Source: an uncultured Bacilli bacterium (GTDB taxonomy: Bacteria; Bacillota_I; Bacilli_A; RF39; UBA660). Taken from it: a stretch of 57,320 bases of DNA. The stretch covers positions 1-57,320 of the forward strand of contig CALVTC010000001.1 of assembly GCA_944359885.1 (NCBI GenBank), given 5' to 3'. Positions 1,089 to 14,691 of this stretch are shown piece by piece. The notes beneath the pieces were generated by a model. That model did not search any database. It was given only the letters and a program-made list of their open reading frames with translations, and had not been told where the DNA came from. The translations under genes were made by a program, and so were the position numbers. Every line of letters starts with the position of its first letter. Within the stretch, counting starts at the first letter, position 1.

Positions 1089-2174
1089 ATGAGAGAAGAA
1101 GAAAAAAATGTATCTGGAAATGCTAATATGGGAAGTGTTACTTCAACGTCTAATAATGGTCAAGTAGGCGATGTGAGTTCTAATATTAATGGAGCTCAGA
1201 TACTTGCTGGTAGTCCAGGAATTAGAATCGCACCAGTAGATGAAAATCCAGTTGATGCTACTCAGAATCATGTTGAAAGCGTAACTACTACAGTGGATAA
1301 GTCTTCCACTCCTGTTGTAACGACAGCAGCACCTATGTTAAATCCTAATGGTGTTATTCCTAAAGTGGATATTTCTCAGACAACTGTAGCACCACCACCT
1401 CCTAGTGAACCTGTTAATCCTCCTGTTGTTACAGGTAAGAAAGAGAAAAAATCAAAGAAAAATACATTTTTAATTTTTATTTTACTTTTGATTATTATCG
1501 TGCTAGGTGTTTATATTTTCTTAGATTATCAAAAAGATGCTACTCGAGGAGAATGTAGTCCTTTAGTAGCAAGTGATAATACTTTAAGACAGTTAGATAT
1601 TAATTCTAGTATTGTACAAGAACTTTATGATAAAGTTAAGACCAATATTAGAGAAGATGTTAGTTATCATAATTTCGATGATACTTTCAAATTATATTTG
1701 GCATTTCGACAAATACCAAAGACTGATTTTTATGATTCTAACTGTAATTTATTTAACGAAAGCATCATGTCTAATTTTACATGTTCTGGTGCTGTTAACT
1801 TTGTTCCTTTGGCATATAAAGAGGAAACATTACAACGTGAGGTTAGAAAGTTATTTGGAGAAAGTGTAGAAATTGCTAATCAAAATATTGTATTAGGTAA
1901 TAGCTGTTTTGGAGGATATCAGTATATTAGTGAACGAGGAGAATATGTTCAAGGATATTGTGGTGAGGTGCCGACAACTATTTATAATGTAGATAAAGAA
2001 TTAATTTCAGCAAGTATTCAAGGAGATACGATTACTTTGAGAGAAAAGGTACGTTACTATAGTGCTGAGGGTGTTTCTTCTGATCAGTTGAAAAACGGGG
2101 TCTATGTACATACGTTTCGGTTAGATAATCATTATCATTATGCGTATGTTAATCGAAGCATTGAAGATGCTTAA
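1089..2174 (+). CDS. hypothetical single-pass membrane protein (Pro/Val/Thr-rich N-terminal region, one TM, Cys-containing C-terminal domain)
   Basis: 361-aa ORF that starts 4 nt after the previous stop. It has a KKEKKSKKNTFLIFILLLIIIVLGVYIFL anchor. No family recognised. Confidence 0.5.
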   Translation: MREEEKNVSGNANMGSVTSTSNNGQVGDVSSNINGAQILAGSPGIRIAPVDENPVDATQNHVESVTTTVDKSSTPVVTTAAPMLNPNGVIPKVDISQTTVAPPPPSEPVNPPVVTGKKEKKSKKNTFLIFILLLIIIVLGVYIFLDYQKDATRGECSPLVASDNTLRQLDINSSIVQELYDKVKTNIREDVSYHNFDDTFKLYLAFRQIPKTDFYDSNCNLFNESIMSNFTCSGAVNFVPLAYKEETLQREVRKLFGESVEIANQNIVLGNSCFGGYQYISERGEYVQGYCGEVPTTIYNVDKELISASIQGDTITLREKVRYYSAEGVSSDQLKNGVYVHTFRLDNHYHYAYVNRSIEDA

Positions 2175-2739: not shown

Positions 2740-3054
2740 ATGTATATTGATGTTGTTGTTTTAGTTATTTTAATTGTTTTAGTTATTATGTTTTTTAAGC
2801 GATTTTCTTCTTTTGTCTTTTTTATGGCAATTGTAGATATTTTGCTTCGTATATTAACTTTTATAAAAAATAATATTGGTCTACCAGATGTCAGTGCTTT
2901 GATTGGAAAATATATTCCAGCTAGTATTTCTGCTATTATAGATAAATATTGTGATGGTCTTCTTAATACTATCTTACAATGGGCCTTTGTTATTTTGATG
3001 TGTATCTTTTTGGGATATATTATTAAAATATTTATACATAAGAAAAAAATTTAA
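2740..3054 (+). CDS. small hypothetical membrane protein
   Basis: 104-aa ORF with three hydrophobic segments and RBS aaggagaa 5 nt upstream. Followed by the terminator at 3064-3097. Confidence 0.45.
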   Translation: MYIDVVVLVILIVLVIMFFKRFSSFVFFMAIVDILLRILTFIKNNIGLPDVSALIGKYIPASISAIIDKYCDGLLNTILQWAFVILMCIFLGYIIKIFIHKKKI

Positions 3055-3063
3055 TTTTTACTT

Positions 3064-3097
3064 AAGAAATGACAAGTTTAGTCATTTCTTTTTTTTA
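3064..3097 (+). terminator. rho-independent terminator
   Basis: Perfect 10-bp stem AAGAAATGAC / GTCATTTCTT with a 7-nt loop, followed by a T-run. Confidence 0.8.
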
Positions 3098-3105
3098 TAC
3101 TTGAT

Positions 3106-3888
3106 TTGGTGATAGGGATGAAAGTTTATTTGGATTTGGTCTTTTTCATTAACTTTTTCTTTGATTTTATTATTTTACTTGCAACAAAATTAGTAGTAAA
3201 AGAAGCAACACCTCTTTGGAGGATTGCTTTAGGAAGTCTTTTTGCGAGTTGTTCTATTTTTCTTTTGTTTCTATCACTTTCTAATTTTGGTTTATTTATT
3301 GTAAAGATTGTAATTAGTGTATTCATTATTTTGGTTACTTTTGGAAGGAGGAATTTTTTAACAGACTTTATTTATTTTTATTTAATTAGTATGATTTTAG
3401 GCGGTTTTTTATATCTGTTTGATATTAGTTTTACTTATGAAAATCAGGGAGTGTTGTTCTTTGGTCATGGACTTGGTCTTAATTTAGTTTTTATTTTGGT
3501 GCTTTCTCCTATTTTTTTATATTTTTATGTGAAAGAATATAAGAAGACAAAAGCTAAAACTTCTGTTATTCATTCTGTAGAAATTTATGTTAATCATGAT
3601 GTTTTTCGCTTAAAGGGTATGTTAGATACTGGGAATCAACTAAGAGATCCTACAACTGGGAAAAGTGTTATTTTGGTTAGTAGAAACGTTCCGATTTCTA
3701 TGTCTAGATATTTTTATGTTCCATATAAAGCACTTAATACGGAAGGCATTATTCCTTGTTGTAAAGTAGATAGGGTAATTGTTGATGATGTTGTTTTTTC
3801 TAAATGTTTGGTTGGACTTAGCAAAGATACATTTTCTTTAGGGGGAGTCGATTGTATTTTACCTAATCAATTTAAGGAGGAATTATGA
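3106..3888 (+). CDS. spoIIGA: sigma-E processing aspartic peptidase SpoIIGA
   Basis: Polytopic N-terminus plus a C-terminal MLDTGNQLRDPTTGKSVILV active-site motif (DTGN). It overlaps the sigE start (ATGA overlap). The start may be the ATG at 3118. Confidence 0.85.
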   Translation: MVIGMKVYLDLVFFINFFFDFIILLATKLVVKEATPLWRIALGSLFASCSIFLLFLSLSNFGLFIVKIVISVFIILVTFGRRNFLTDFIYFYLISMILGGFLYLFDISFTYENQGVLFFGHGLGLNLVFILVLSPIFLYFYVKEYKKTKAKTSVIHSVEIYVNHDVFRLKGMLDTGNQLRDPTTGKSVILVSRNVPISMSRYFYVPYKALNTEGIIPCCKVDRVIVDDVVFSKCLVGLSKDTFSLGGVDCILPNQFKEEL

Positions 3889-4580
3889 TAAAAAAACTTA
3901 TAAGTTGGATTCGGGGGATTTTTTCTAGGGTTTATAGTATTTTTTATGTTGGGGCAACGGATATGCTTCCAGAGCCTTTATCTAAGGAGATGGAAGAGTT
4001 TTATATAGAAAAAATGCAAGTGGGAGATGAGGATGCAAAGGATAAATTGATTGAACATAATTTGAGATTGGTTGTTTTTTTAGCTAAAAAATATGAGAAT
4101 ACAGGTGTTGATTTGGAGGATTTAGTAAGTATTGGTACGATAGGACTTATTAAAGGTATTCAAACTTTTCAGAGTGGGAAAAATATTAAATTAGCAACTT
4201 ATGCTTCTAGGTGTATTGATAATGAAATTTTAATGCATTTGCGAAAGAATAAGAAAATAAAGACAGAAGTTAGTATTGATGCTTCTTTGTCACTTGACGG
4301 GGAAGGAAATGAACTTCATTTAGAAGATGTGTTAGGAACAGATCCTGATATTGTTACAAAAGAGATTGAGGAGGAAAATGATAAGAAAGTAATGATTGAA
4401 GAAGTGATGAAATTAAAACCAAGAGATAGGGATATTATAGTACTTCGTTATGGATTATTAGGAAATGATGAACTTACACAGAAGGAAGTTGCAGAGAAAT
4501 TAGGAATTTCTCAATCTTATATATCTAGAATTGAAAAGAAGGTAATTAAACGTTTGAGAACGGTTGTCAGTAATTTTTAG
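3885..4580 (+). CDS. sigE: sporulation sigma factor sigma-E (pro-sigma-E)
   Basis: Near-collinear with my recall of B. subtilis SigE: LPEPLSKEME..., HNLRLVVFLAKKYENTGVDLEDLVSIGTIGLIK, KLATYASRCIDNEILMHLRK, GISQSYISRIEKKVIKRL. Confidence 0.92.
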   Translation: MIKKLISWIRGIFSRVYSIFYVGATDMLPEPLSKEMEEFYIEKMQVGDEDAKDKLIEHNLRLVVFLAKKYENTGVDLEDLVSIGTIGLIKGIQTFQSGKNIKLATYASRCIDNEILMHLRKNKKIKTEVSIDASLSLDGEGNELHLEDVLGTDPDIVTKEIEEENDKKVMIEEVMKLKPRDRDIIVLRYGLLGNDELTQKEVAEKLGISQSYISRIEKKVIKRLRTVVSNF

Positions 4581-4589
4581 GTTTTCTCG

Positions 4590-4618
4590 TTTACTTGCCT
4601 TTTTCTTTGTGGTATACT
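4590..4618 (+). promoter_or_regulatory. sigma-A-like promoter with extended -10 for the adhesin gene
   Basis: TTTACT (4590-4595), a 17-nt spacer, then TGgTATACT (4610-4618), about 30 nt upstream of the GTG start. Confidence 0.45.
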
Positions 4619-4648
4619 TTAGTTAAGTATAAGGTAAGGTGAGACTTT

Positions 4649-7600
4649 GTGTTAGATAATATTAAGAATTGGTGGAAGCAGGAGAGAAAGTCTAGCAAAG
4701 TATTGATGATTTTTTCTTGTTTATTTATTGCTGTATTTGTTATTACGATTGCTAATTTTGGTATTAGTTTTGCAGCAGCATTACCAGAGACTTTAGTATC
4801 GGATACTCTTTTTCGAGATGATGGATATCGCGTTAATTTATATCCAGAGTTAAGAGGAGAAGACATTATTTCTTTAACTCCTTTTGTTGCAACGGATACT
4901 TCTAGCAATACTTATCATATGTATTGTTTAGAGAGAACATTAGAGTGGTATGATGATGCTACGGTTACAAAAGGGGAACAATTAGATTCAGGATATGCAT
5001 ATATTATTCAACATGGTTATCCTACTGTTTCATTGACGGATGAGGGAGACTGGGTAAATTCTTATTTAACACAGGTTGCAATATGGTTATATCAAGATCG
5101 TTCTCAAGGAGTTTTAGATACAGTAGATGGTTCTTTAACTGCTAATCAAAAAAGAGCTATCATGCAAAATAATACATATTATCCTATTATAGATTCTTTG
5201 GTTACTGGGGCGATTGATGCGAAAGAAAATTATAGTAATGTAACACCTTCCATTACGGTTTCTTCTGGAGATTTTCACCTGGATAGTTCAGCTACTTATT
5301 TAGAGACTAATTATTTATCTGTTTCTTCTAATGTTAGTTTTAAGACCTATACTGTTGCTCTTGATATGGCAAATGCTCAAGTAGTAAATGAAGATGGTGA
5401 TGTTATTTCTTCTAATGATACATTTACTAGTGGGGAGAAGTTTAAAATTCGCCTTCCTTTAGCCCAATTAGATGGGACGGACTTAGATTTAAAGATTAGT
5501 ATTACTACGGATTATGAAATGGCAGTTGCATATCAATATAATCCTCCTGCTGAATATGACGATATGCAAAAATCTATGGCGTCTGCTGTTACGATTGAGA
5601 CAAGGTCTGCAGTTTCTTCTACTACAGTAGTGATACCAACAGGTAGTTTAACGATTGAAAAGGTCGATAGTGTTTCTAATAATTTACTTCCGGGGGCGGA
5701 AATTGAAGTTTATCGTGTTATAGGTACTGGTAATGAAAAAATGATTGATAGCTTTACTACTTCTAATGAAGCGAAAGTTATTTCTAATCTTTTACCTGGG
5801 CAATATAAAGTAGTTGAAAAGAGTGCACCAGATGGTTATTTGATTGATGTTAGTGATACATCTGTTTTGATTAATGCATCTAATTTGAATGTTACTGCGC
5901 GTCTTATGAATGAACTGATAGATATAAAGGTGCAAATTCAAAAGGTTGATGAGGATACTAATTTGCCTCTTGCTGGAGCAGTCATTAAGATTGTAGATTC
6001 TACAGGAAAACAGGTTACTAGTTTTACTTCTGAAAATGGCTACACTACTATTTCAGGGTTAGATATTGGAAAATATCAAGCAATCGAAGTAAGTGCACCA
6101 GATGGTTATTATTTAGATTCTACTCCAGTAGATTTTGAAGTAACTGCAGAAGAACAAGAAGTTTCAATTACTATGAAAAATAAGAAAAATTTGGTACAGA
6201 TATTAAAGACTGATCAAGATGGTGAGGCAATTGCAGGTGCTGTTTTAAGAGTTGTTAATGCTGATACCGGTGCTTCGGTTGATCAATGGACGACTTCTAC
6301 AGAAGCACATGACTTAACTGGAATTGCTCCAGGTAATTATCGAGTAGAAGAAGTAAGTCCACCTAGCGGATATGCCTTGAATTCTAATTCTATTCCTTTT
6401 ACAATTACAAATACAATGACAGATAAAATAGAGATTCATTTTCCTAATACAAAGAGTCAAATTATGATTTCTAAGGTTGATGAACAAGGACAAACTCTTG
6501 CAGGAGCAAAGCTAGAAATTTATAATGAATCAGGTGATAAAGTATATGAATTTACTAGTGAGGATACTCCTACTGTTATTGAAAAATTAGAAGCTGGTCG
6601 ATATACTTTGAGAGAGGTAGATGTACCAGATGGCTATCAGTTAAATAAAGAACCAGTAAGTTTTGAAGTTGCTGTTGATACTACAAACTTACAAGTAACA
6701 ATGAAAAATGTGAAAAATTCTGTTTCTTTTTATAAGATTGATAGGGATACTGAGGGTCCTGTGAGTGGTGCTGTTCTTCGTTTGGTTGATGAGGAAGGCG
6801 AGGTTATTGACGAATGGACTACTGATAATGAAGCACATGTCATTGAGGGTTTAAAAAATGGTACTTATTATTTGGAAGAAGTAAGTGCTCCAAATGGTTA
6901 TATTCGTAATACCGAACGAATTGAAGTAGTGGTAGATGATAATACTACAACTTCTGCTTATACAATGTTTAATCAAAGTATTGCTGTACGAATTGGTAAG
7001 GTTGATAGTGAAACTAAAGATTTGGTTGCAGGGGCAACTTTAGAGCTTTTAAATTCTAATTATGAAGTTATCTCTACTTGGACTACGACAACAGAATATC
7101 GTGTTTTTGATAATTTGAGTGAAGGAAAATATTATGTTAGAGAAACTATTGCACCTAAAGGTTATGTTTTAAATGATGAGCTTTTAAGTTTTACAGTAGA
7201 GGAAGATAATCCTTCTGTTACGGTTTCTTTTGAAGATAAGCAAACGACTGTAAAACTTGGAAAAGTTGATGCTAATACTGGTAATTATGTTGCTGGTGCT
7301 GTATTGAAACTTTCTCGTCAAGATGGTACTATGGATGATGTTACTTTTGTTAGTGAAGAGAAGGCGACTGTCTTTAGAGGCCTTGCTAGTGGTGTATATA
7401 TATTAGAGGAAGTAAGTGCTCCAGATGGTTACATTACTAGTAATTCAAAAATTACTTTTGAACTTGATAATTTAGGAAAGACAAAAAATATTGCTTTGAA
7501 GAGTGATTTGATTTCTATTTCTGTTTCTAATAAGAGGTTAGAGATTGATACAAACGGTGTTGATGGTTATGAATTTCAGTTGATGAGTCACGACGGGAGT

Positions 7601-8164
7601 CTTCTTGATACTTATTCTATTAGTGACGAAGTGTTTGTATCTGATGTTTTAGAAAATGGTAATTATTTATTAAAGCAAACAAAAGTACCTGATGGTGTTG
7701 TATTAAATAATAATGCTTATTCTTTTGTTATTTCTGATTCTGATGGTTCTGATGTTGTGTATTTTACAAATGATTATACTAAAGTAGACTTTGAAAAGAA
7801 GGAAATGATAGGTGATAAGCAACTAGCAGGTGGACACTTTATTTTAAGAAATGAAGAAGGAGATATGGTTGCAGAATGGGATTCTACTGATACGGCAAAG
7901 AGAATTGAAAAACTTGTTCCTGGTACTTATACTTTAAGTGAAGTTAGTTCTCCTGATGGATATCAGTTAGATGATTCGTTACTTACTTTCCAGGTAAATG
8001 CTACTGCTGATGTACAAACTGTTACTATGTTTAATGCCTTGAAAGTTGATGTTCCTAATACATCTGAAAATTCTTTACTATATTTATTTGTTGGTACTGT
8101 GATTATGATGACTGGATTTAGTGTTCTTGGTTATGTTTATTTTAAAAGGCGTGGTGATGTATGA
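4649..8164 (+). CDS. giant cell-surface adhesin: N-terminal thioester (TQxA) domain plus about 9-10 Cna-B/SpaA-type repeats and a C-terminal sorting-like signal
   Basis: GTG start with RBS aaggtgag. Signal/anchor helix. Thioester Cys in HMYCLE (4925-4927) and the TQVAIW motif (5069-5086). Repeated (T/K)KVD...GA.L...(S/V)APDGY modules. The C-terminus is VPNTSEN plus a hydrophobic helix plus KRRGDV. Confidence 0.8.
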   Translation: MLDNIKNWWKQERKSSKVLMIFSCLFIAVFVITIANFGISFAAALPETLVSDTLFRDDGYRVNLYPELRGEDIISLTPFVATDTSSNTYHMYCLERTLEWYDDATVTKGEQLDSGYAYIIQHGYPTVSLTDEGDWVNSYLTQVAIWLYQDRSQGVLDTVDGSLTANQKRAIMQNNTYYPIIDSLVTGAIDAKENYSNVTPSITVSSGDFHLDSSATYLETNYLSVSSNVSFKTYTVALDMANAQVVNEDGDVISSNDTFTSGEKFKIRLPLAQLDGTDLDLKISITTDYEMAVAYQYNPPAEYDDMQKSMASAVTIETRSAVSSTTVVIPTGSLTIEKVDSVSNNLLPGAEIEVYRVIGTGNEKMIDSFTTSNEAKVISNLLPGQYKVVEKSAPDGYLIDVSDTSVLINASNLNVTARLMNELIDIKVQIQKVDEDTNLPLAGAVIKIVDSTGKQVTSFTSENGYTTISGLDIGKYQAIEVSAPDGYYLDSTPVDFEVTAEEQEVSITMKNKKNLVQILKTDQDGEAIAGAVLRVVNADTGASVDQWTTSTEAHDLTGIAPGNYRVEEVSPPSGYALNSNSIPFTITNTMTDKIEIHFPNTKSQIMISKVDEQGQTLAGAKLEIYNESGDKVYEFTSEDTPTVIEKLEAGRYTLREVDVPDGYQLNKEPVSFEVAVDTTNLQVTMKNVKNSVSFYKIDRDTEGPVSGAVLRLVDEEGEVIDEWTTDNEAHVIEGLKNGTYYLEEVSAPNGYIRNTERIEVVVDDNTTTSAYTMFNQSIAVRIGKVDSETKDLVAGATLELLNSNYEVISTWTTTTEYRVFDNLSEGKYYVRETIAPKGYVLNDELLSFTVEEDNPSVTVSFEDKQTTVKLGKVDANTGNYVAGAVLKLSRQDGTMDDVTFVSEEKATVFRGLASGVYILEEVSAPDGYITSNSKITFELDNLGKTKNIALKSDLISISVSNKRLEIDTNGVDGYEFQLMSHDGSLLDTYSISDEVFVSDVLENGNYLLKQTKVPDGVVLNNNAYSFVISDSDGSDVVYFTNDYTKVDFEKKEMIGDKQLAGGHFILRNEEGDMVAEWDSTDTAKRIEKLVPGTYTLSEVSSPDGYQLDDSLLTFQVNATADVQTVTMFNALKVDVPNTSENSLLYLFVGTVIMMTGFSVLGYVYFKRRGDV
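5642..8040 (+). repeat. tandem array of diverged ~85-95-aa Cna-B/SpaA-like domain repeats inside the adhesin CDS
   Basis: Recurrent motifs at the protein level: SAPDGYLID, SAPDGYYLD, PPSGYALN, VPDGYQLN, SAPNGYIRN, APKGYVLN, SAPDGYITS, VPDGVVLN, SPDGYQLD. The nucleotide copies are diverged. Confidence 0.7.
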
Positions 8165-8733
8165 GTCGATTAGCTTTTCAATATGGCACGGTTCATACAG
8201 AAAAGAGCAAGCACGCCTTTTCTATTAAACGAAAGTTTTTAAAACATCATTTATCTGTTATCTTGATGGCCCCAATTATGACTCATCAAGAAGATATTTC
8301 AAAGTATGATTATTTAATTAGTAAAGATGAAAATATTTATTTAACGTTGAAAAAACAATTTTTGAATACTAGGTTATTGATAATCGATGATGCTCATCTT
8401 TTGAGTGAAGTTCAAGTTGATGAATTGTTACAAGTGGCAATATCTTTGCATATTTCTGTTTTGTGTTTGGGATTAAGAACAGATTTTCGTACAAGTGGAT
8501 TTTCAGGAGCTAGAAGACTTTTGGAATTGTCTCAGGTTTTAATTGAATCTCCAAGTTACTGTGAGTGTGGTCAAAAGGCATTGTTTAGTGTTCGCAAGGA
8601 AAAAGGAAAGATTACTTTTTGTGGAGAAAAAATTTTAAAAGGAGATTCTATTTGTTATGAAGCACTATGTCCTGCTTGCTATTATAGAAAGTTAATTCAT
8701 TATAAAAGATTAAAACAAAGTGGTAGATTATAA
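8161..8733 (+). CDS. thymidine-kinase-family protein with degenerate P-loop and catalytic motifs
   Basis: Collinear with type II TK: VLCLGLRTDFRTSGFSGARRLL resembles E. coli VLCYGLRTDFRGELF, and the Zn-ribbon cysteines are present (CECG...CPAC). The Walker A reads GTVHTEKSK instead of GxxxxGKS/T. The DE(C/V)QF motif reads DDAHLL. The start overlaps the adhesin stop (gtATGA). Confidence 0.6.
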   Translation: MSRLAFQYGTVHTEKSKHAFSIKRKFLKHHLSVILMAPIMTHQEDISKYDYLISKDENIYLTLKKQFLNTRLLIIDDAHLLSEVQVDELLQVAISLHISVLCLGLRTDFRTSGFSGARRLLELSQVLIESPSYCECGQKALFSVRKEKGKITFCGEKILKGDSICYEALCPACYYRKLIHYKRLKQSGRL

Positions 8734-9135: not shown

Positions 9136-11742
9136 ATGAGTGATAAAATTAAATTATATAAAAAAGAAGTGGTTGTTTTTGGAATTTTATTGATTGTTAT
9201 AGTGGTGGGTTTTATTACTCCATCTTTTGCGGTATCAACACCGGTATCTTCTGTTATTATTACTTCAGAAAATACTAGTTACGAAAATAATGATTCAGGT
9301 TCCTGGCAAGTAGAGAAAAGTGGAAAATGGGTAGAAAAAGGAACTGCTGAAGTTAGGTTTGATGTATCTACTGTTCCGATGACTGGAAATTCTTATACAG
9401 ATATTATCTTTGTATTAGATATTTCCAGTTCTATGGTGGGAGACAAACTAGAAAGAGTAAAACAAGATACAATAGAGTTATTAGAAAGTTTGTTATCTAA
9501 TGGAGAAAATAGAGCAGCTTTGATTACCTTTGATACAGAGTCACAAATTGTATCAGGCTTAACGAATGATAAGGATTTATTAACACAAGAAGTGAATAAT
9601 ATACTGGCAACTGGAACTACCAATTATTACCAAGCATTAGTTAATGTAGATACGATTTTAAAAGATTATGAAAAAGAAGAAAATAGAGAGATGATTGTTC
9701 TATTCTTAACAGATGGATATCCTAATGAAGATACACCGAATCAAATTGCACAATATCGGTATTTAAAAAGTGAGTATCCTTATATTACCATTAATGGGAT
9801 TCAGTATGAAATGGGAGGAAGTATCTTAGATCCGGTTAAAGAAGTCAGTGACAATCAATTTATAGCTGATATGGAAACACTAAACAATGTTTTGTTTGAT
9901 GCGAGTGTAGTATCAGCTCCTTATGATAGCTTTCAGATTGTAGATTATATTGAGAATGATTATTTTATTTTGGAAAGTGAAGATAATATCACTGTAAGTG
10001 AAGGAGAAGTGACGTTAGAGGAAGAAAACGGATTACAGAAGATAACTTGGACGATATCCAATTTTAGATCAGGAAGTAATGCAAATCTTTCTATGAATTT
10101 GAAGTTAAAAGATGAACTGATCGGTCAAGGAGGAGTATATCCAACAAATAGAAGAGAACAAATAATATCAATGATACAAAGTCAAAATGAAAATGAAAAT
10201 GTGAATAGCACCTTAACTCCAGCGTTACAGGAAAACTATCAAGTAATCTATGATGGAAATGCACCAGATGGATGTAGTGTAGAAAATATTCCAGAAAAAG
10301 AGAATCATTCTGTATTTGACGTGGTGTCTATTTCAGAAGAACAACTGAGTTGTAGTGGATATGAGTTTAAGGGATGGGAGATAGTAACGGATAACATTAC
10401 CAAGGTGAATGATGATTATTTTATTATGCCAGAGAGTGATGTTATACTTAGAGCGAAATGGGGTAAAGTTTCAATATCAAAATCCATGAATGGAGAAGTT
10501 TATACTGCGCCAACACTATATAGTATAATGCAAAATGAAGCAGTAATGGATAATATATCTAGTACCTATGTATCATCAAGTAACGGAATTGATTTTAGTG
10601 AAGATTCTTCTGATACGAATGGAAAAGGAGTTTATACAAGAGCAGGAACGGAAGATGATGAGTATCCTGTACATTACTATCGAGGTGATGTTGATAATAA
10701 TCATGTAAAATTTGCTGGATTCTGTTGGAGAACAGTAAGAACCACATCAACAGGAGGAGTAAAATTAATCTATGACGGAGTACCTCGTAGCGATGGAAGT
10801 TGTAATAACATAGGTGAAGCATCTCAAATAGGGATAAGCGATTTTAATAGCAATATTGATTCTCCAGCAGATATAGGTTATATGTACGGAACAAGATATA
10901 TATATGGTGGAAGAAGTGGTAGTAGTACAAATGGATATATTTATGGGAATGATGTTACTTGGGATGGTTCGCAGTATACATTAATAGATACATATACAAG
11001 TAGAGGTTGGGAAACAGATAGAACAACCTTGGCAACTAAATATCATTATACTTGTTTATCTGCATCATCGACTTGTACAAGTGTATATTATATTCATTAT
11101 TTCGGACTTCCTAATTATATATATTATCTAGCGCTAAACAATGGTGTTAATATTGAAGATGCTAAGAATGAAATGTTTACCAATACCAATAATTCTACTG
11201 CTAAGAACGTAATTGATACTTGGTATGAAGAAAATATGACAGATTATATAAGATATTTAGAAGATACTGTGTGGTGTAATGATAGAAGTATTATATCAGG
11301 TGCTTTAAAAGGAAAAGACGCGGATGGAACAGAGTTGAATTATTTTGGAGCATATGGAAGAAATGTGGATAATATTAGTCCAAGTTTAGAATGCTCAAAC
11401 CGAAATGATTCTTTCACAGTAAATAGTGAGAATGGAAATGGTGCATTAACCTATCCAATAGCGATGCTAACAGCAGATGAATTAACATTAGCGGGGAATG
11501 GGTGGAATGGTTATAGTAGTGATTCTTATTTAACTATTGGAGAACATTACTGGTCTTTCTCTCCTTACACTTATGATTACTGCCGCGCTATCGGGTTCCG
11601 CGTCTTCGCGGGTGGTTACCTTTCCAACAACCGTGTGGATGTTGTGAATGGCCTTCGTCCTTCCGTTTCTCTTGCGCCTGGAATGATGGTGTCTGCAGGA
11701 GATGGAAGTAGCATATCACCATATGAAATTTTCACTTACTGA
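9136..11742 (+). CDS. secreted/surface vWA-domain protein with a Listeria-Bacteroides-repeat domain and a C-terminal lectin-like (DUF1566/DUF6273-type) domain
   Basis: The ORF is open from 9052. The best start is ATG 9136 (RBS GAGGGA), followed by the signal peptide KKEVVVFGILLIVIVVGFITPSFA. vWA MIDAS motif DIIFVLDISSSM. GYEFKGWE...LRAKW repeat. C-terminal YWSFSP...GLRPSVSL motif. Confidence 0.75.
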   Translation: MSDKIKLYKKEVVVFGILLIVIVVGFITPSFAVSTPVSSVIITSENTSYENNDSGSWQVEKSGKWVEKGTAEVRFDVSTVPMTGNSYTDIIFVLDISSSMVGDKLERVKQDTIELLESLLSNGENRAALITFDTESQIVSGLTNDKDLLTQEVNNILATGTTNYYQALVNVDTILKDYEKEENREMIVLFLTDGYPNEDTPNQIAQYRYLKSEYPYITINGIQYEMGGSILDPVKEVSDNQFIADMETLNNVLFDASVVSAPYDSFQIVDYIENDYFILESEDNITVSEGEVTLEEENGLQKITWTISNFRSGSNANLSMNLKLKDELIGQGGVYPTNRREQIISMIQSQNENENVNSTLTPALQENYQVIYDGNAPDGCSVENIPEKENHSVFDVVSISEEQLSCSGYEFKGWEIVTDNITKVNDDYFIMPESDVILRAKWGKVSISKSMNGEVYTAPTLYSIMQNEAVMDNISSTYVSSSNGIDFSEDSSDTNGKGVYTRAGTEDDEYPVHYYRGDVDNNHVKFAGFCWRTVRTTSTGGVKLIYDGVPRSDGSCNNIGEASQIGISDFNSNIDSPADIGYMYGTRYIYGGRSGSSTNGYIYGNDVTWDGSQYTLIDTYTSRGWETDRTTLATKYHYTCLSASSTCTSVYYIHYFGLPNYIYYLALNNGVNIEDAKNEMFTNTNNSTAKNVIDTWYEENMTDYIRYLEDTVWCNDRSIISGALKGKDADGTELNYFGAYGRNVDNISPSLECSNRNDSFTVNSENGNGALTYPIAMLTADELTLAGNGWNGYSSDSYLTIGEHYWSFSPYTYDYCRAIGFRVFAGGYLSNNRVDVVNGLRPSVSLAPGMMVSAGDGSSISPYEIFTY
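11548..11681 (+). other. candidate DGR variable region (VR): adenine-poor, NNC-codon-rich patch
   Basis: Hand counts over 11551-11681: about 14 A versus about 47 T in 131 nt. GC is 58% over 11581-11680. 15 of 29 codons from 11548 end in C. There is a 33-nt A-free run at 11649-11681. No TR or RT in the window. Confidence 0.45.
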
Positions 11743-12017
11743 CAGTTTTTCTTAAATCCTTATTTTAAAGGCATTTGTGAGGATGTTTTAGGTGTTCAAT
11801 GCATGATTTTTTCCTTATATGTCATATAAAATCATATGAAATGGCATTCTGATATATCCAAGAGAGTTTATTGTTAGCTTGAATAGCGATAATCCTACAT
11901 TAAATAAAGATATTACTCTTATTTTTTCTTTTGTCTTGTAATATTTTTGATAAAAAGCTGTACATAAGCAAACATATGAAATTTTGGTGGATTAATACAC
12001 AAAAAAAAACTAGATTA

Positions 12018-13929: not shown

Positions 13930-13939
13930 TTTTATAATA

Positions 13940-14120
13940 AAACGTTGAGTAAAGATAAGTATTAAGGATGTTAAATATTTAGAGAAATCGTGGTTGGTGA
14001 AAACGGTTTATTTACTTCTTAAGAAGCTCCTTTATGAGTTTTATCGGTTATGCCGTTATTGTAATTAAGACCAAATTAGGATGGTACCGTGCTCTGCACT
14101 CCTAGTTAGGTCTTTTATTT
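13940..14120 (+). promoter_or_regulatory. T-box leader (probable Ala specifier GCU) with terminator/antiterminator
   Basis: AGAGA box at 13981. Conserved T-box sequence AAATTAGGATGGTACCGTG (14073-14091). Candidate specifier GCT at 14026-14028. Terminator arms at 14069-14081 / 14100-14112 followed by TTTT. alaS lies downstream in the same operon. Confidence 0.75.
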
Positions 14121-14136
14121 GTATTGAGGAGGAATT

Positions 14137-14691
14137 ATGAAAATATATTTATTAGCAGGTAAGGCGGGTAGCGGTAAAGATTTGATGGGTAGATATATGA
14201 AAAGAGAGTATGATTTCTCTGGGCATCATGCTTGTATTTTGCATATTACGACTCCTTTATATCAATATGCTAGAAATTATTTTAGTTGGAATGGAGATAT
14301 GGCAGAGAAACCTCGTGAATTTTTACAGGAAATGGGTATTGAAATAATTCAGAAAAAACTTGGTAAAAAGTATTTTCTAATAGATCGTCTATGCGAAGAT
14401 ATAGAGATTTTAAAGAATTTCTTTGATGTTTTTATTATTACTGATGGTAGATTAATATCAGAATTTGAAGAGTTAAGACGTAGATTTCCTGATATTAAAA
14501 TTATTCATATTATTCGAGAAAATTATGATAATAAACTTTCTTTAGAAGAGAAAAATCATATTACAGAATTGGAATTAGATGAGTATAAAAATTATGATTA
14601 TATCGTTAGAAATACTTCTAAAGAGAGATTGTTTTCTGAAGCTGATAAAATTATGGGAGTTGAAGCTGGTTTGGAAGGAGAGGTTATATGA
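14137..14691 (+). CDS. T4 gp1-type deoxynucleoside-monophosphate kinase-like P-loop protein
   Basis: Motif order matches my recall of phage T4 gp1: GKAGSGKD P-loop, REFLQEMGIEII, ITDGRLISEFEEL, NHITELEL. Confidence 0.55.
   Translation: MKIYLLAGKAGSGKDLMGRYMKREYDFSGHHACILHITTPLYQYARNYFSWNGDMAEKPREFLQEMGIEIIQKKLGKKYFLIDRLCEDIEILKNFFDVFIITDGRLISEFEELRRRFPDIKIIHIIRENYDNKLSLEEKNHITELELDEYKNYDYIVRNTSKERLFSEADKIMGVEAGLEGEVI

Follow-up and report, generated by a model that had tools for sequence, protein, structure and literature searches.

The 57,320-nucleotide stretch of DNA analysed here (the window; positions 1 to 57,320 of contig CALVTC010000001.1, GenBank assembly GCA_944359885.1) comes from an uncultured Bacilli bacterium of the GTDB lineage RF39 (UBA660) and carries a gene for a surface protein with a vWA domain. 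The 3' end of this cellular gene, at positions 11551-11673 within a compositionally aberrant patch at 11548-11681, is very probably a variable region (VR) written by a diversity-generating retroelement (DGR) whose cassette lies outside the window or has been lost. The segment is anomalous in composition, occupies the 3' end of its open reading frame (ORF) and is homologous to genuine pairs of VR and template repeat (TR) that, in related loci, are accompanied by Avd and reverse transcriptase (RT) sequences. This homology suggests that the window copy was written by the same DGR process. The window VR would represent a new case of a kind of system that is already known.

The patch is the 134-nt stretch with the fewest adenines in the window, where the share of 134-nt intervals with equally few is 3.5e-5. 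Its GC content of 53% compares with 33.6% for the target gene overall and 29.1% for the window, and a GC profile calculated over 120 nt rises from ~0.37 to 0.575 and falls to 0.30, all inside 200 nt. The composition shifts abruptly at both patch edges. A preliminary description of this DNA, made from the letters alone, had counted 14 A against 47 T in the 131 nt at 11551-11681, 58% GC over 11581-11680 and an adenine-free run of 33 nt at 11649-11681; each of these values was reproduced, as was the count of 15 C-ending codons among the first 29 codons from 11548, compared with ~7% in the remainder of the gene. Over the whole patch the ratio of C-ending to T-ending codons is 17:21, against 54:354 in the remaining gene (Fisher p = 9e-6), and A-ending codons number 1 of 45 against 307 of 823 (p = 6e-8).

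Resampling was used to separate codon choice from residue content, the same 45 residues being re-encoded 20,000 times according to the codon frequencies of the window. The observed 16 adenines compare with 33.6 +/- 3.0 in the recodings and the observed 71 G+C with 50.8 +/- 2.6, and not one of the 20,000 recodings was as extreme as the observed sequence in either count. C-ending codons (17 observed) averaged 4.2 +/- 1.9 and never exceeded 15 in the simulations. The anomaly thus sits at synonymous sites and lies beyond all recodings, so the amino-acid content cannot explain the patch. Its scaffold residues are encoded by adenine-free codons (GCT, GGG, GCG GGT GGT, GGC CTT CGT CCT TCC GTT TCT CTT). 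The composition is that expected of a VR, namely a 3' ORF end with adenine-avoiding scaffold codons and NNC/NNT variable codons. The coordinates of the features are collected in Table 1.

Table 1 Features of the window and of four related loci (positions of L-numbered loci are in the coordinates of each locus).
Feature	Position	Strand	Description
Variable region proper	11551..11673	+	TGG (W of YWSFSP) to TCT CTT (SL of RPSVSL); equivalent to the VR/TR homology of relatives
Compositional patch	11548..11681	+	A-depleted, 53% GC; 17/45 codons end in C, 1/45 in A
A-free 3' run, 33 nt	11649..11681	+	GGC CTT CGT CCT TCC GTT TCT CTT GCG CCT GG; zero A
Target gene	9136..11742	+	Surface protein, 868 aa from ATG 9136 or 896 aa from first ATG 9052; from the ORF list
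vWA domain	9400..9753	+	PF13519 E = 1.8e-15, PF00092 E = 8e-14; aa 117-234 of the 896-aa reading
Listeria-Bacteroides / InlB B-repeat-like segment	10237..10467	+	PF09479, PF18998; E ~1e-4 to 7e-4, under Pfam cut-offs
C-terminal family domain, ~416 aa	10492..11739	+	Without Pfam model; defines a large multi-copy family
Intergenic spacer, 275 nt	11743..12017		Between target stop and convergent UPF0029 gene
L037 (JBJEDW010000020)	VR 5169-5298, TR 5512-5635		13/13 mismatches at TR adenines, 78-nt core; Avd-like ORF, full-length RT
L043 (JBJEYJ010000030)	VR 4538-4659, TR 4882-5003		17 A vs 7 other mismatches; Avd-like ORF, full-length RT
L062 (CAVFIB010000106)	VR 1089-1211, TR 1465-1587		27 A vs 8 other mismatches; Avd-like ORF, RT start, contig ends
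L012 (CALVUY010000057)	VR 2443-2577, TR 2776-2911		18 A vs 14 other mismatches; Avd-like ORF, RT remnant

The C-terminal domain of the protein is a member of a multi-copy family. Four of the family loci fetched (L012, L037, L043 and L062) carry a TR downstream of the segment homologous to the patch, with VR and TR starts ~335-375 nt apart. In these homologues the VR nature of the equivalent segment is demonstrable, since a TR, an Avd-like ORF and RT sequence lie beside it. The 118-residue Avd-like ORF of L037 has a sole NCBIfam match, to NF033474 (DGR Avd), which covers the whole model at E = 3.8e-4 and is below the curated cut-off. The L037 RT, of 495 residues, matches RVT_1 with E = 8.7e-18 and contains the DGR-type motifs IGAMTSQ ... 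YMDD, and the L043 RT is 84% identical to it. The L037 VR is 6 nt longer than its TR and contains an extra GATGCC-like unit at 5246-5252, an in-frame indel in an otherwise clean pair.

The L012 target, a protein of 857 residues, combines vWA, Flg_new and the C-terminal domain as in the window gene, with 60% identity over the N-terminal half. Its VR and TR differ by 14 non-adenine mismatches and one indel, and its RT ORF (3431-3841) is a remnant of 136 residues that aligns only to residues 346-494 of the L037 RT and lacks the catalytic core. L012 is thus a DGR dying in place, and such a remnant means that cassette decay is seen in the window gene's own subfamily. The TR (2776-2911) and the Avd-like ORF (3091-3468) of L012 persist beside the RT remnant. 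Inverted repeats with a 4-nt loop are located ~90-100 nt past the VR end, just beyond the target stop codon, in three of the loci (L012:2676-2699, L037:5389-5418 and L043:4764-4781), where they may serve either as terminators or as target-recognition hairpins.

The VR/TR homology of each of the four loci begins with the TGG of a W-x-x-S-P motif and extends to just past the S-L of R-P-S-x-S-L. The equivalent window positions, 11551 and 11673, are the edges of the compositional patch. The proposal of a DGR VR, which the preliminary description had based on composition, is thereby supported by four family loci with a VR/TR pair at this very position and with matching edges. At their 3' ends, VR and TR of the four loci are identical save for 1-2 mismatches just before TTTCACT, and the adenine-free run of the window corresponds to the GGCGTCCGTCC(C/G)TC...TCACT 3' end common to VR and TR of the related DGR loci. 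By this correspondence, the run may represent the 3' homing end, similar to an initiation-of-mutagenic-homing (IMH) site.

Comparison with the L012 TR is also in line with the suggestion that AAC codons of a template had been converted to NNC. The 15 AAY codons of this TR face window codons of which nine end in C, six in T and none in A or G, and asparagine is still encoded at three of the 15 positions. Conversely, 11 of the 15 NNC codons in the window face L012 TR codons with an adenine at position 1 or 2. The TRs of L037, L043 and L062 give the same codon picture when set against the window VR.

These features are consistent with a mechanism in which the VR specifies the C-terminal tip, facing the ligand, of a vWA surface protein anchored in the membrane. 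Its DNA would not have been shaped by the AT-biased codon usage of the host but copied in by mutagenic retrohoming. In this process the TR RNA would undergo reverse transcription in which errors arise opposite adenines alone, and the resulting cDNA would replace the VR, so that AAC/AAT codons of the TR become NNC/NNT codons of the VR. Since errors are limited to adenines, the adenine-free codons of the scaffold residues would pass unchanged from TR to VR. The cassette behind the window VR (TR, Avd and RT) would lie outside the window, either elsewhere in the genome or recently lost.

The state of the signature was assessed in 69 distinct VR-equivalents of the family, some of them on short contigs. 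Upstream of the VR, the third-position C fraction is ~0.07 in every family gene surveyed. Inside the VR-equivalents it covers a continuous range from 0 to 0.58, with values of 0.34-0.46 for the four VRs that have an adjacent TR. The window VR, at 0.39, has no A-ending codon among its 41, the lowest value of the 69. A third-position C fraction of at least 0.3 is found in 34 of the 69 VR-equivalents, and a TR is present in the fetched flank of only four of those 34. About a quarter of the 69 have fully host-like codon usage, which indicates that the protein does not need the patch codons and that, without renewal, the signature fades.

Paralogues from a single metagenome-assembled genome (MAG) provide evidence for service in trans. 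Loci L009, L014 and L025, on separate contigs of MAG CAZJKS, are 90-100% identical at the third codon positions of the VR and only 54-64% identical in its amino acids, their differences falling at codon positions 1-2, and upstream of the VR the third positions are 68-77% identical. This inversion of third-position and amino-acid identity points to one template writing several dispersed targets. L020 and L021 of MAG CAKPDP likewise show 90-100% third-position identity in the VR and ~55-64% amino-acid identity. The template for the CAZJKS and CAKPDP paralogues is not in the fetched DNA. L082, considered as a remote target of the L062 TR from the same MAG, was rejected on the basis of 23 non-adenine mismatches; this pair is therefore not a demonstration of trans service, which is provided by the CAZJKS trio. 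As judged from these sequences, targets distant from their cassette seem to be the norm in the family. A VR at L073:2787-2909 contains nine intact AAC codons and 24% A, close to the look of an unmutated template, in a protein whose N-terminal identity of 67% over 423 residues is among the highest; no TR is present within 10 kb downstream of it.

Several results weigh against a DGR origin of the window VR, or against a DGR that still acts on it. The absence of a TR and an RT from the window, already noticed in the preliminary description, was confirmed in several ways. When both strands were scanned without gaps for a TR copy of the patch, with candidate adenine mismatches scored apart, nothing rose above background. 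A gapped, adenine-aware local alignment across the window reached a best score of 73.5, against a null of 78.6 +/- 3.3 derived from codon-shuffled queries, and detected no TR; the true VR/TR pairs of L012 and L037 score 160 and 202, respectively. No RT was found in the window by a scan for I/L-G-x-x-x-S-Q ... Y-x-D-D motifs, and tblastn with the L037 RT and Avd gave no match to the window at E <= 1. The cassette of the relatives starts ~130-160 nt past the target stop codon, whereas the spacer behind the window gene is without any such element, and blastn of this spacer against the DGR-bearing loci returned only chance-level matches in place of a TR remnant.

The search for a cognate template was extended to collections of viral contigs, species-representative genomes and JGI metagenome contigs with patterns in which each VR base could be itself or A, the VR adenines and the third positions of NNC codons being held fixed. 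A 48-nt pattern from the VR core had no match in any of the three collections, where the window VR itself was not encountered either. Patterns from the 5' part (metagenome and viral contigs) and the 3' part (viral contigs) of the VR also gave no match. A repeat of ~100-150 bp with mismatches almost only at TR adenines was thus found neither in the window nor in the collections scanned. Exact-product look-ups of the window protein with either start codon returned no record. The closest entry in the protein collection is 64% identical, and no conspecific sequence is present there.

The four recovered TRs, in turn, differ from the window VR by 28-37 non-adenine mismatches and none of them fits it; as cognate templates all four were rejected, though they are of the same design. 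Mismatches in this number indicate that the window VR derives from a different, unseen template of that design. The six T-ending codons opposite AAY may reflect C-to-T decay after writing or AAT codons in the template, which are used heavily in the L037 and L062 TRs. Finally, the proteins P0045, P0047, P0048 and P0049 (loci L002, L003, L004 and L017), which come from different samples, have one common VR peptide, YGFSENRAGGFALGSSGNLYTYGVGTSRG. P0047 and P0049 differ elsewhere in the protein and are identical in this peptide, and the VR of this lineage retains a strong DGR-type codon signature with 56% GC against 30%. A VR peptide shared by such near-identical proteins indicates that some lineages are not diversifying at present.

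Many of these observations would be accommodated if the VR were orphaned, that is, written by a DGR whose cassette has since been lost, with a signature now decaying towards host usage. This possibility is nested in the DGR origin proposed above, differs from it in regard to present activity and has a chance that falls a little short of even. It is favoured by the lack of a cassette in 57 kb and of a remnant in the spacer, where all four TR-bearing relatives have theirs, by the decay observed in L012 (its 136-residue RT remnant, 14 non-adenine mismatches and indel) and by the proportion of host-like VR-equivalents, about a quarter, which implies that orphaning and full decay are common. The six T-ending codons fit a drift from C to T, the P0045/P0047/P0048/P0049 lineage retains its VR peptide while varying elsewhere, and no hairpin with a 4-nt loop follows the window gene (11640-11800), unlike L012, L037 and L043. 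However, the third-position C fraction of the window VR is within the range of the TR-adjacent VRs and A-ending codons are absent, although the signature should erode quickly in a genome of 29% GC. Moreover, of the 34 VR-equivalents with a strong signature only four are accompanied by a TR in the flank retrieved (some contigs being short), the imprint of one TR across paralogues of the same MAG indicates that trans service is usual, and T-ending codons may equally come from AAT codons of a template.

The window gene may instead be a live remote target in a dispersed repertoire of paralogous surface receptors that uncultured gut Bacilli diversify in trans from a single template, with the cassette distant or on a mobile element. 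Seven or more copies per related MAG were counted among the loci fetched. This is advanced tentatively, as its chance is clearly below even. On the narrower question of where the cassette is, its presence elsewhere in the genome, serving the window gene in trans, is slightly likelier than its recent loss, because of the base rate in the family and the strength of the signature.

Transfer of the segment by recombination or gene conversion, the donor being a paralogue or a homologue of higher GC and the lineage having no active retroelement, is unlikely. The abrupt composition change at both edges would be expected of such a tract, and donors could exist, as related genomes contain several copies of the family. 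Yet the window holds only one family copy, and among 85 related loci the DNA match is limited to the conserved last ~30 nt of the patch; a higher-GC homologue with the patch verbatim, which the preliminary description had named as evidence to the contrary, was not among them. No exact or adenine-degenerate copy is present in the three collections, and the family genes of low-GC genomes all have ~31% GC upstream of the VR, with no higher-GC donor seen. A donor would itself need the DGR-type signature, and conversion therefore only moves the question. An origin unrelated to mobile elements, through amino-acid content, selection on codons or mRNA structure, or an element on the opposite strand, is very improbable: a peptide rich in G, A, R, P, S, V, F and Y does lower the adenine content somewhat, and host usage would give it 38% GC against 34% for the gene, but the synonymous-site excess is far beyond the resampling distribution, the patch has no minus-strand ORF of at least 60 residues over it, no Rfam match at gathering thresholds and no terminator-like or inverted-repeat structure, and about a quarter of the family keep the protein framework with ordinary codons.

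The structure of the variable domain was predicted for the last 190 residues of the protein (window 11170-11739) from an alignment of 99 sequences, with a predicted local distance difference test (pLDDT) score of 87 and a predicted template modelling (pTM) score of 0.82. In this model the VR forms the terminal β-strands. A Foldseek search of the PDB gave no match at E <= 0.001; the best, non-significant match was the Thomasclavelia ramosa IgA peptidase 9qa6 (E = 0.08, 192 aligned columns). The source of 9qa6 is a related gut Bacilli lineage, and this domain may be shared with the window protein. In the viral structure library BFVD the best matches are DUF6273 proteins, again non-significant (E 0.3-6, TM-score up to 0.43). 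DUF6273 has been described as a C-type-lectin (CLec)-like DGR target domain of gut phages (PMC10743442). Two of 20 family members have a weak match to its profile PF19789, the better at 4.7e-4, and the window protein has none at E <= 1. A model of the whole 416-residue domain (pLDDT 73) gave no significant PDB match, with C-type lectins appearing as short matches only at E > 3, and a PDB sequence-profile search found nothing. The likeness to CLec and DUF6273 folds suggested in the preliminary description is thus seen as sub-threshold resemblance, and a significant match to the PDB or to PF19789 was not obtained; on the predicted model, a CLec/DUF6273-type fold is plausible.

The target protein consists, in order, of an N-terminal hydrophobic anchor, the vWA domain, a Flg_new/InlB B-repeat segment and the C-terminal family domain. 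The vWA domain scores 57.9 bits with PF13519 (cut-off 27) and 52.7 bits with PF00092 (cut-off 23.8), and its DxSxS metal-site motif, of the metal ion-dependent adhesion site (MIDAS) type, reads DISSS in the translation. Translation probably starts at ATG 9136 rather than ATG 9052, as judged from a GAGG 6-7 nt upstream of the former. A Pfam scan of the C-terminal domain gave no match. A search of the protein collection detected 1912 homologues of this domain at E <= 1e-3, the best with 64% identity, and 401 loci were counted in the species-representative genome set. With few exceptions these loci come from MAGs of uncultured gut Bacilli, of the "Mycoplasma sp. CAG:877"-like type or of Erysipelotrichaceae; among the loci fetched single MAGs often have five to seven copies or more. 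An alignment of 20 family sequences has ~85 invariant columns. All members share one C-terminal framework, Y-x-W-S-L-S-P-x-x-F-x-x-x-x-A-x-x-F-x-L-x-S-S-G-x-L-x-x-x-x-V-x-x-x-x-G-V-R-P-S-V-S-L, the x positions of which mostly hold residues encodable by AAC-derived codons. No member of the family occurs among the viral contigs searched, and a phage origin of the target was rejected for this reason. Low-GC contigs that carry this Bacilli-type family (L008, L009, L014, L022, L025, L055, L062, L064 and others) occur in MAGs labelled Muribaculaceae, Bacteroidaceae or Saccharibacteria, labels that probably reflect mis-binning of short contigs.

The genes around the target are chromosomal, comprising spoIIGA, a sigma factor, an adhesin, a thymidine-kinase-like ORF, UPF0029 and an AI-2E transporter, and no phage-like feature was noted among them. 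A gene for a SpoIIGA-type protease followed by a sigma-70-family gene (3106-4580) forms the classical spoIIGA-sigE arrangement, because of which the host is probably a spore-former, unlike what the Mycoplasma/Tenericutes labels of some related MAGs imply. The region of the target gene is adjoined by a gene (4649-8164) for a surface protein of 1171 residues that has a thioester domain at its N-terminus and nine repeats of the SpaA type. The tail of this adhesin is hydrophobic and positively charged and is preceded by VPNTS, which may be a variant of a sortase signal; a similar adhesin sits after the DGR remnant in L012. The thymidine-kinase-like ORF (8161-8733), whose start overlaps the adhesin stop codon, aligns only to positions 63-176 of the 176-position thymidine kinase profile. 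The N-terminal P-loop part is seemingly missing, and the gene may be truncated. Further downstream, a T-box leader at 13936-14106 (95.4 bits, gathering threshold 93) lies upstream of an ORF of 184 residues (14137-14691).

Of the known systems, the cassettes of L037, L043, L062 and L012 resemble the window locus most directly, in domain family, in VR position (W-x-x-S-P ... G-V-R-P-S-x-S-L) and in the GC-rich 3' end, and their TRs, with AAC/AAT codons between adenine-free scaffold codons, have the template design that is proposed for the window. L012 is additionally similar in its vWA and Flg_new architecture. These loci differ in having TR, Avd and RT sequence downstream, where the window has its 275-nt spacer and a convergent housekeeping gene. 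The Mtd protein of Bordetella phage BPP-1 and TvpA of Treponema denticola have the classical C-terminal CLec-fold VRs, and in T. denticola several targets are reportedly served by one cassette. The window protein resembles them in the location of the VR at the extreme C-terminus of a ligand-binding protein and in adenine-specific substitutions; unlike them, it has no significant CLec-fold match in the PDB and no cassette in the window, and its host is a low-GC member of the gut Bacilli.

The tentaclin-type DUF6273 targets of gut phages (PMC10743442) share with the window protein the variable β-strands at the end of a compact domain and the W-x-x-S-P ... (G)VRP style. In contrast to them, the window protein is cellular, multi-domain, membrane-anchored and adhesin-like, and its family is not present in viral contigs. 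The type V pili of Bacteroides reported to have DGR-diversified adhesive tips (bioRxiv 10.1101/2024.11.15.621889) are similar in concept, a gut commensal diversifying a surface adhesin by means of a DGR. The thioester-domain and SpaA-repeat adhesin next to the window gene, with a similar one in L012, offers a further parallel. The two systems differ in phylum, protein families and anchoring. A literature search for DGRs in connection with RF39 found no paper, and one for DGRs in connection with vWA found only intracellular conflict systems of multicellular bacteria, a different context.

Composition by itself can thus reveal a DGR VR in a low-GC genome, and homology can then confirm it even when the retroelement is not nearby. 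The analysis also marks out as DGR targets a large family of surface proteins of uncultivated gut Bacilli that has no name so far, with its 401 loci and several copies per genome. Roughly half of the surveyed copies bear a DGR codon signature that is still fresh, and for few of these does the retrieved flank include a cassette; this family of C-terminal domains appears to be diversified mostly in trans. Standard DGR finders, which need RT, TR and VR on one contig, would therefore miss most such targets, and current estimates of how many gut-bacterial proteins undergo targeted hypermutation may be too low. If such a trans-served repertoire exists, the family would display the full life cycle of VRs, from freshly written to fully decayed, and would constitute a natural system for measuring the rates at which DGR targets are gained, served in trans and abandoned.

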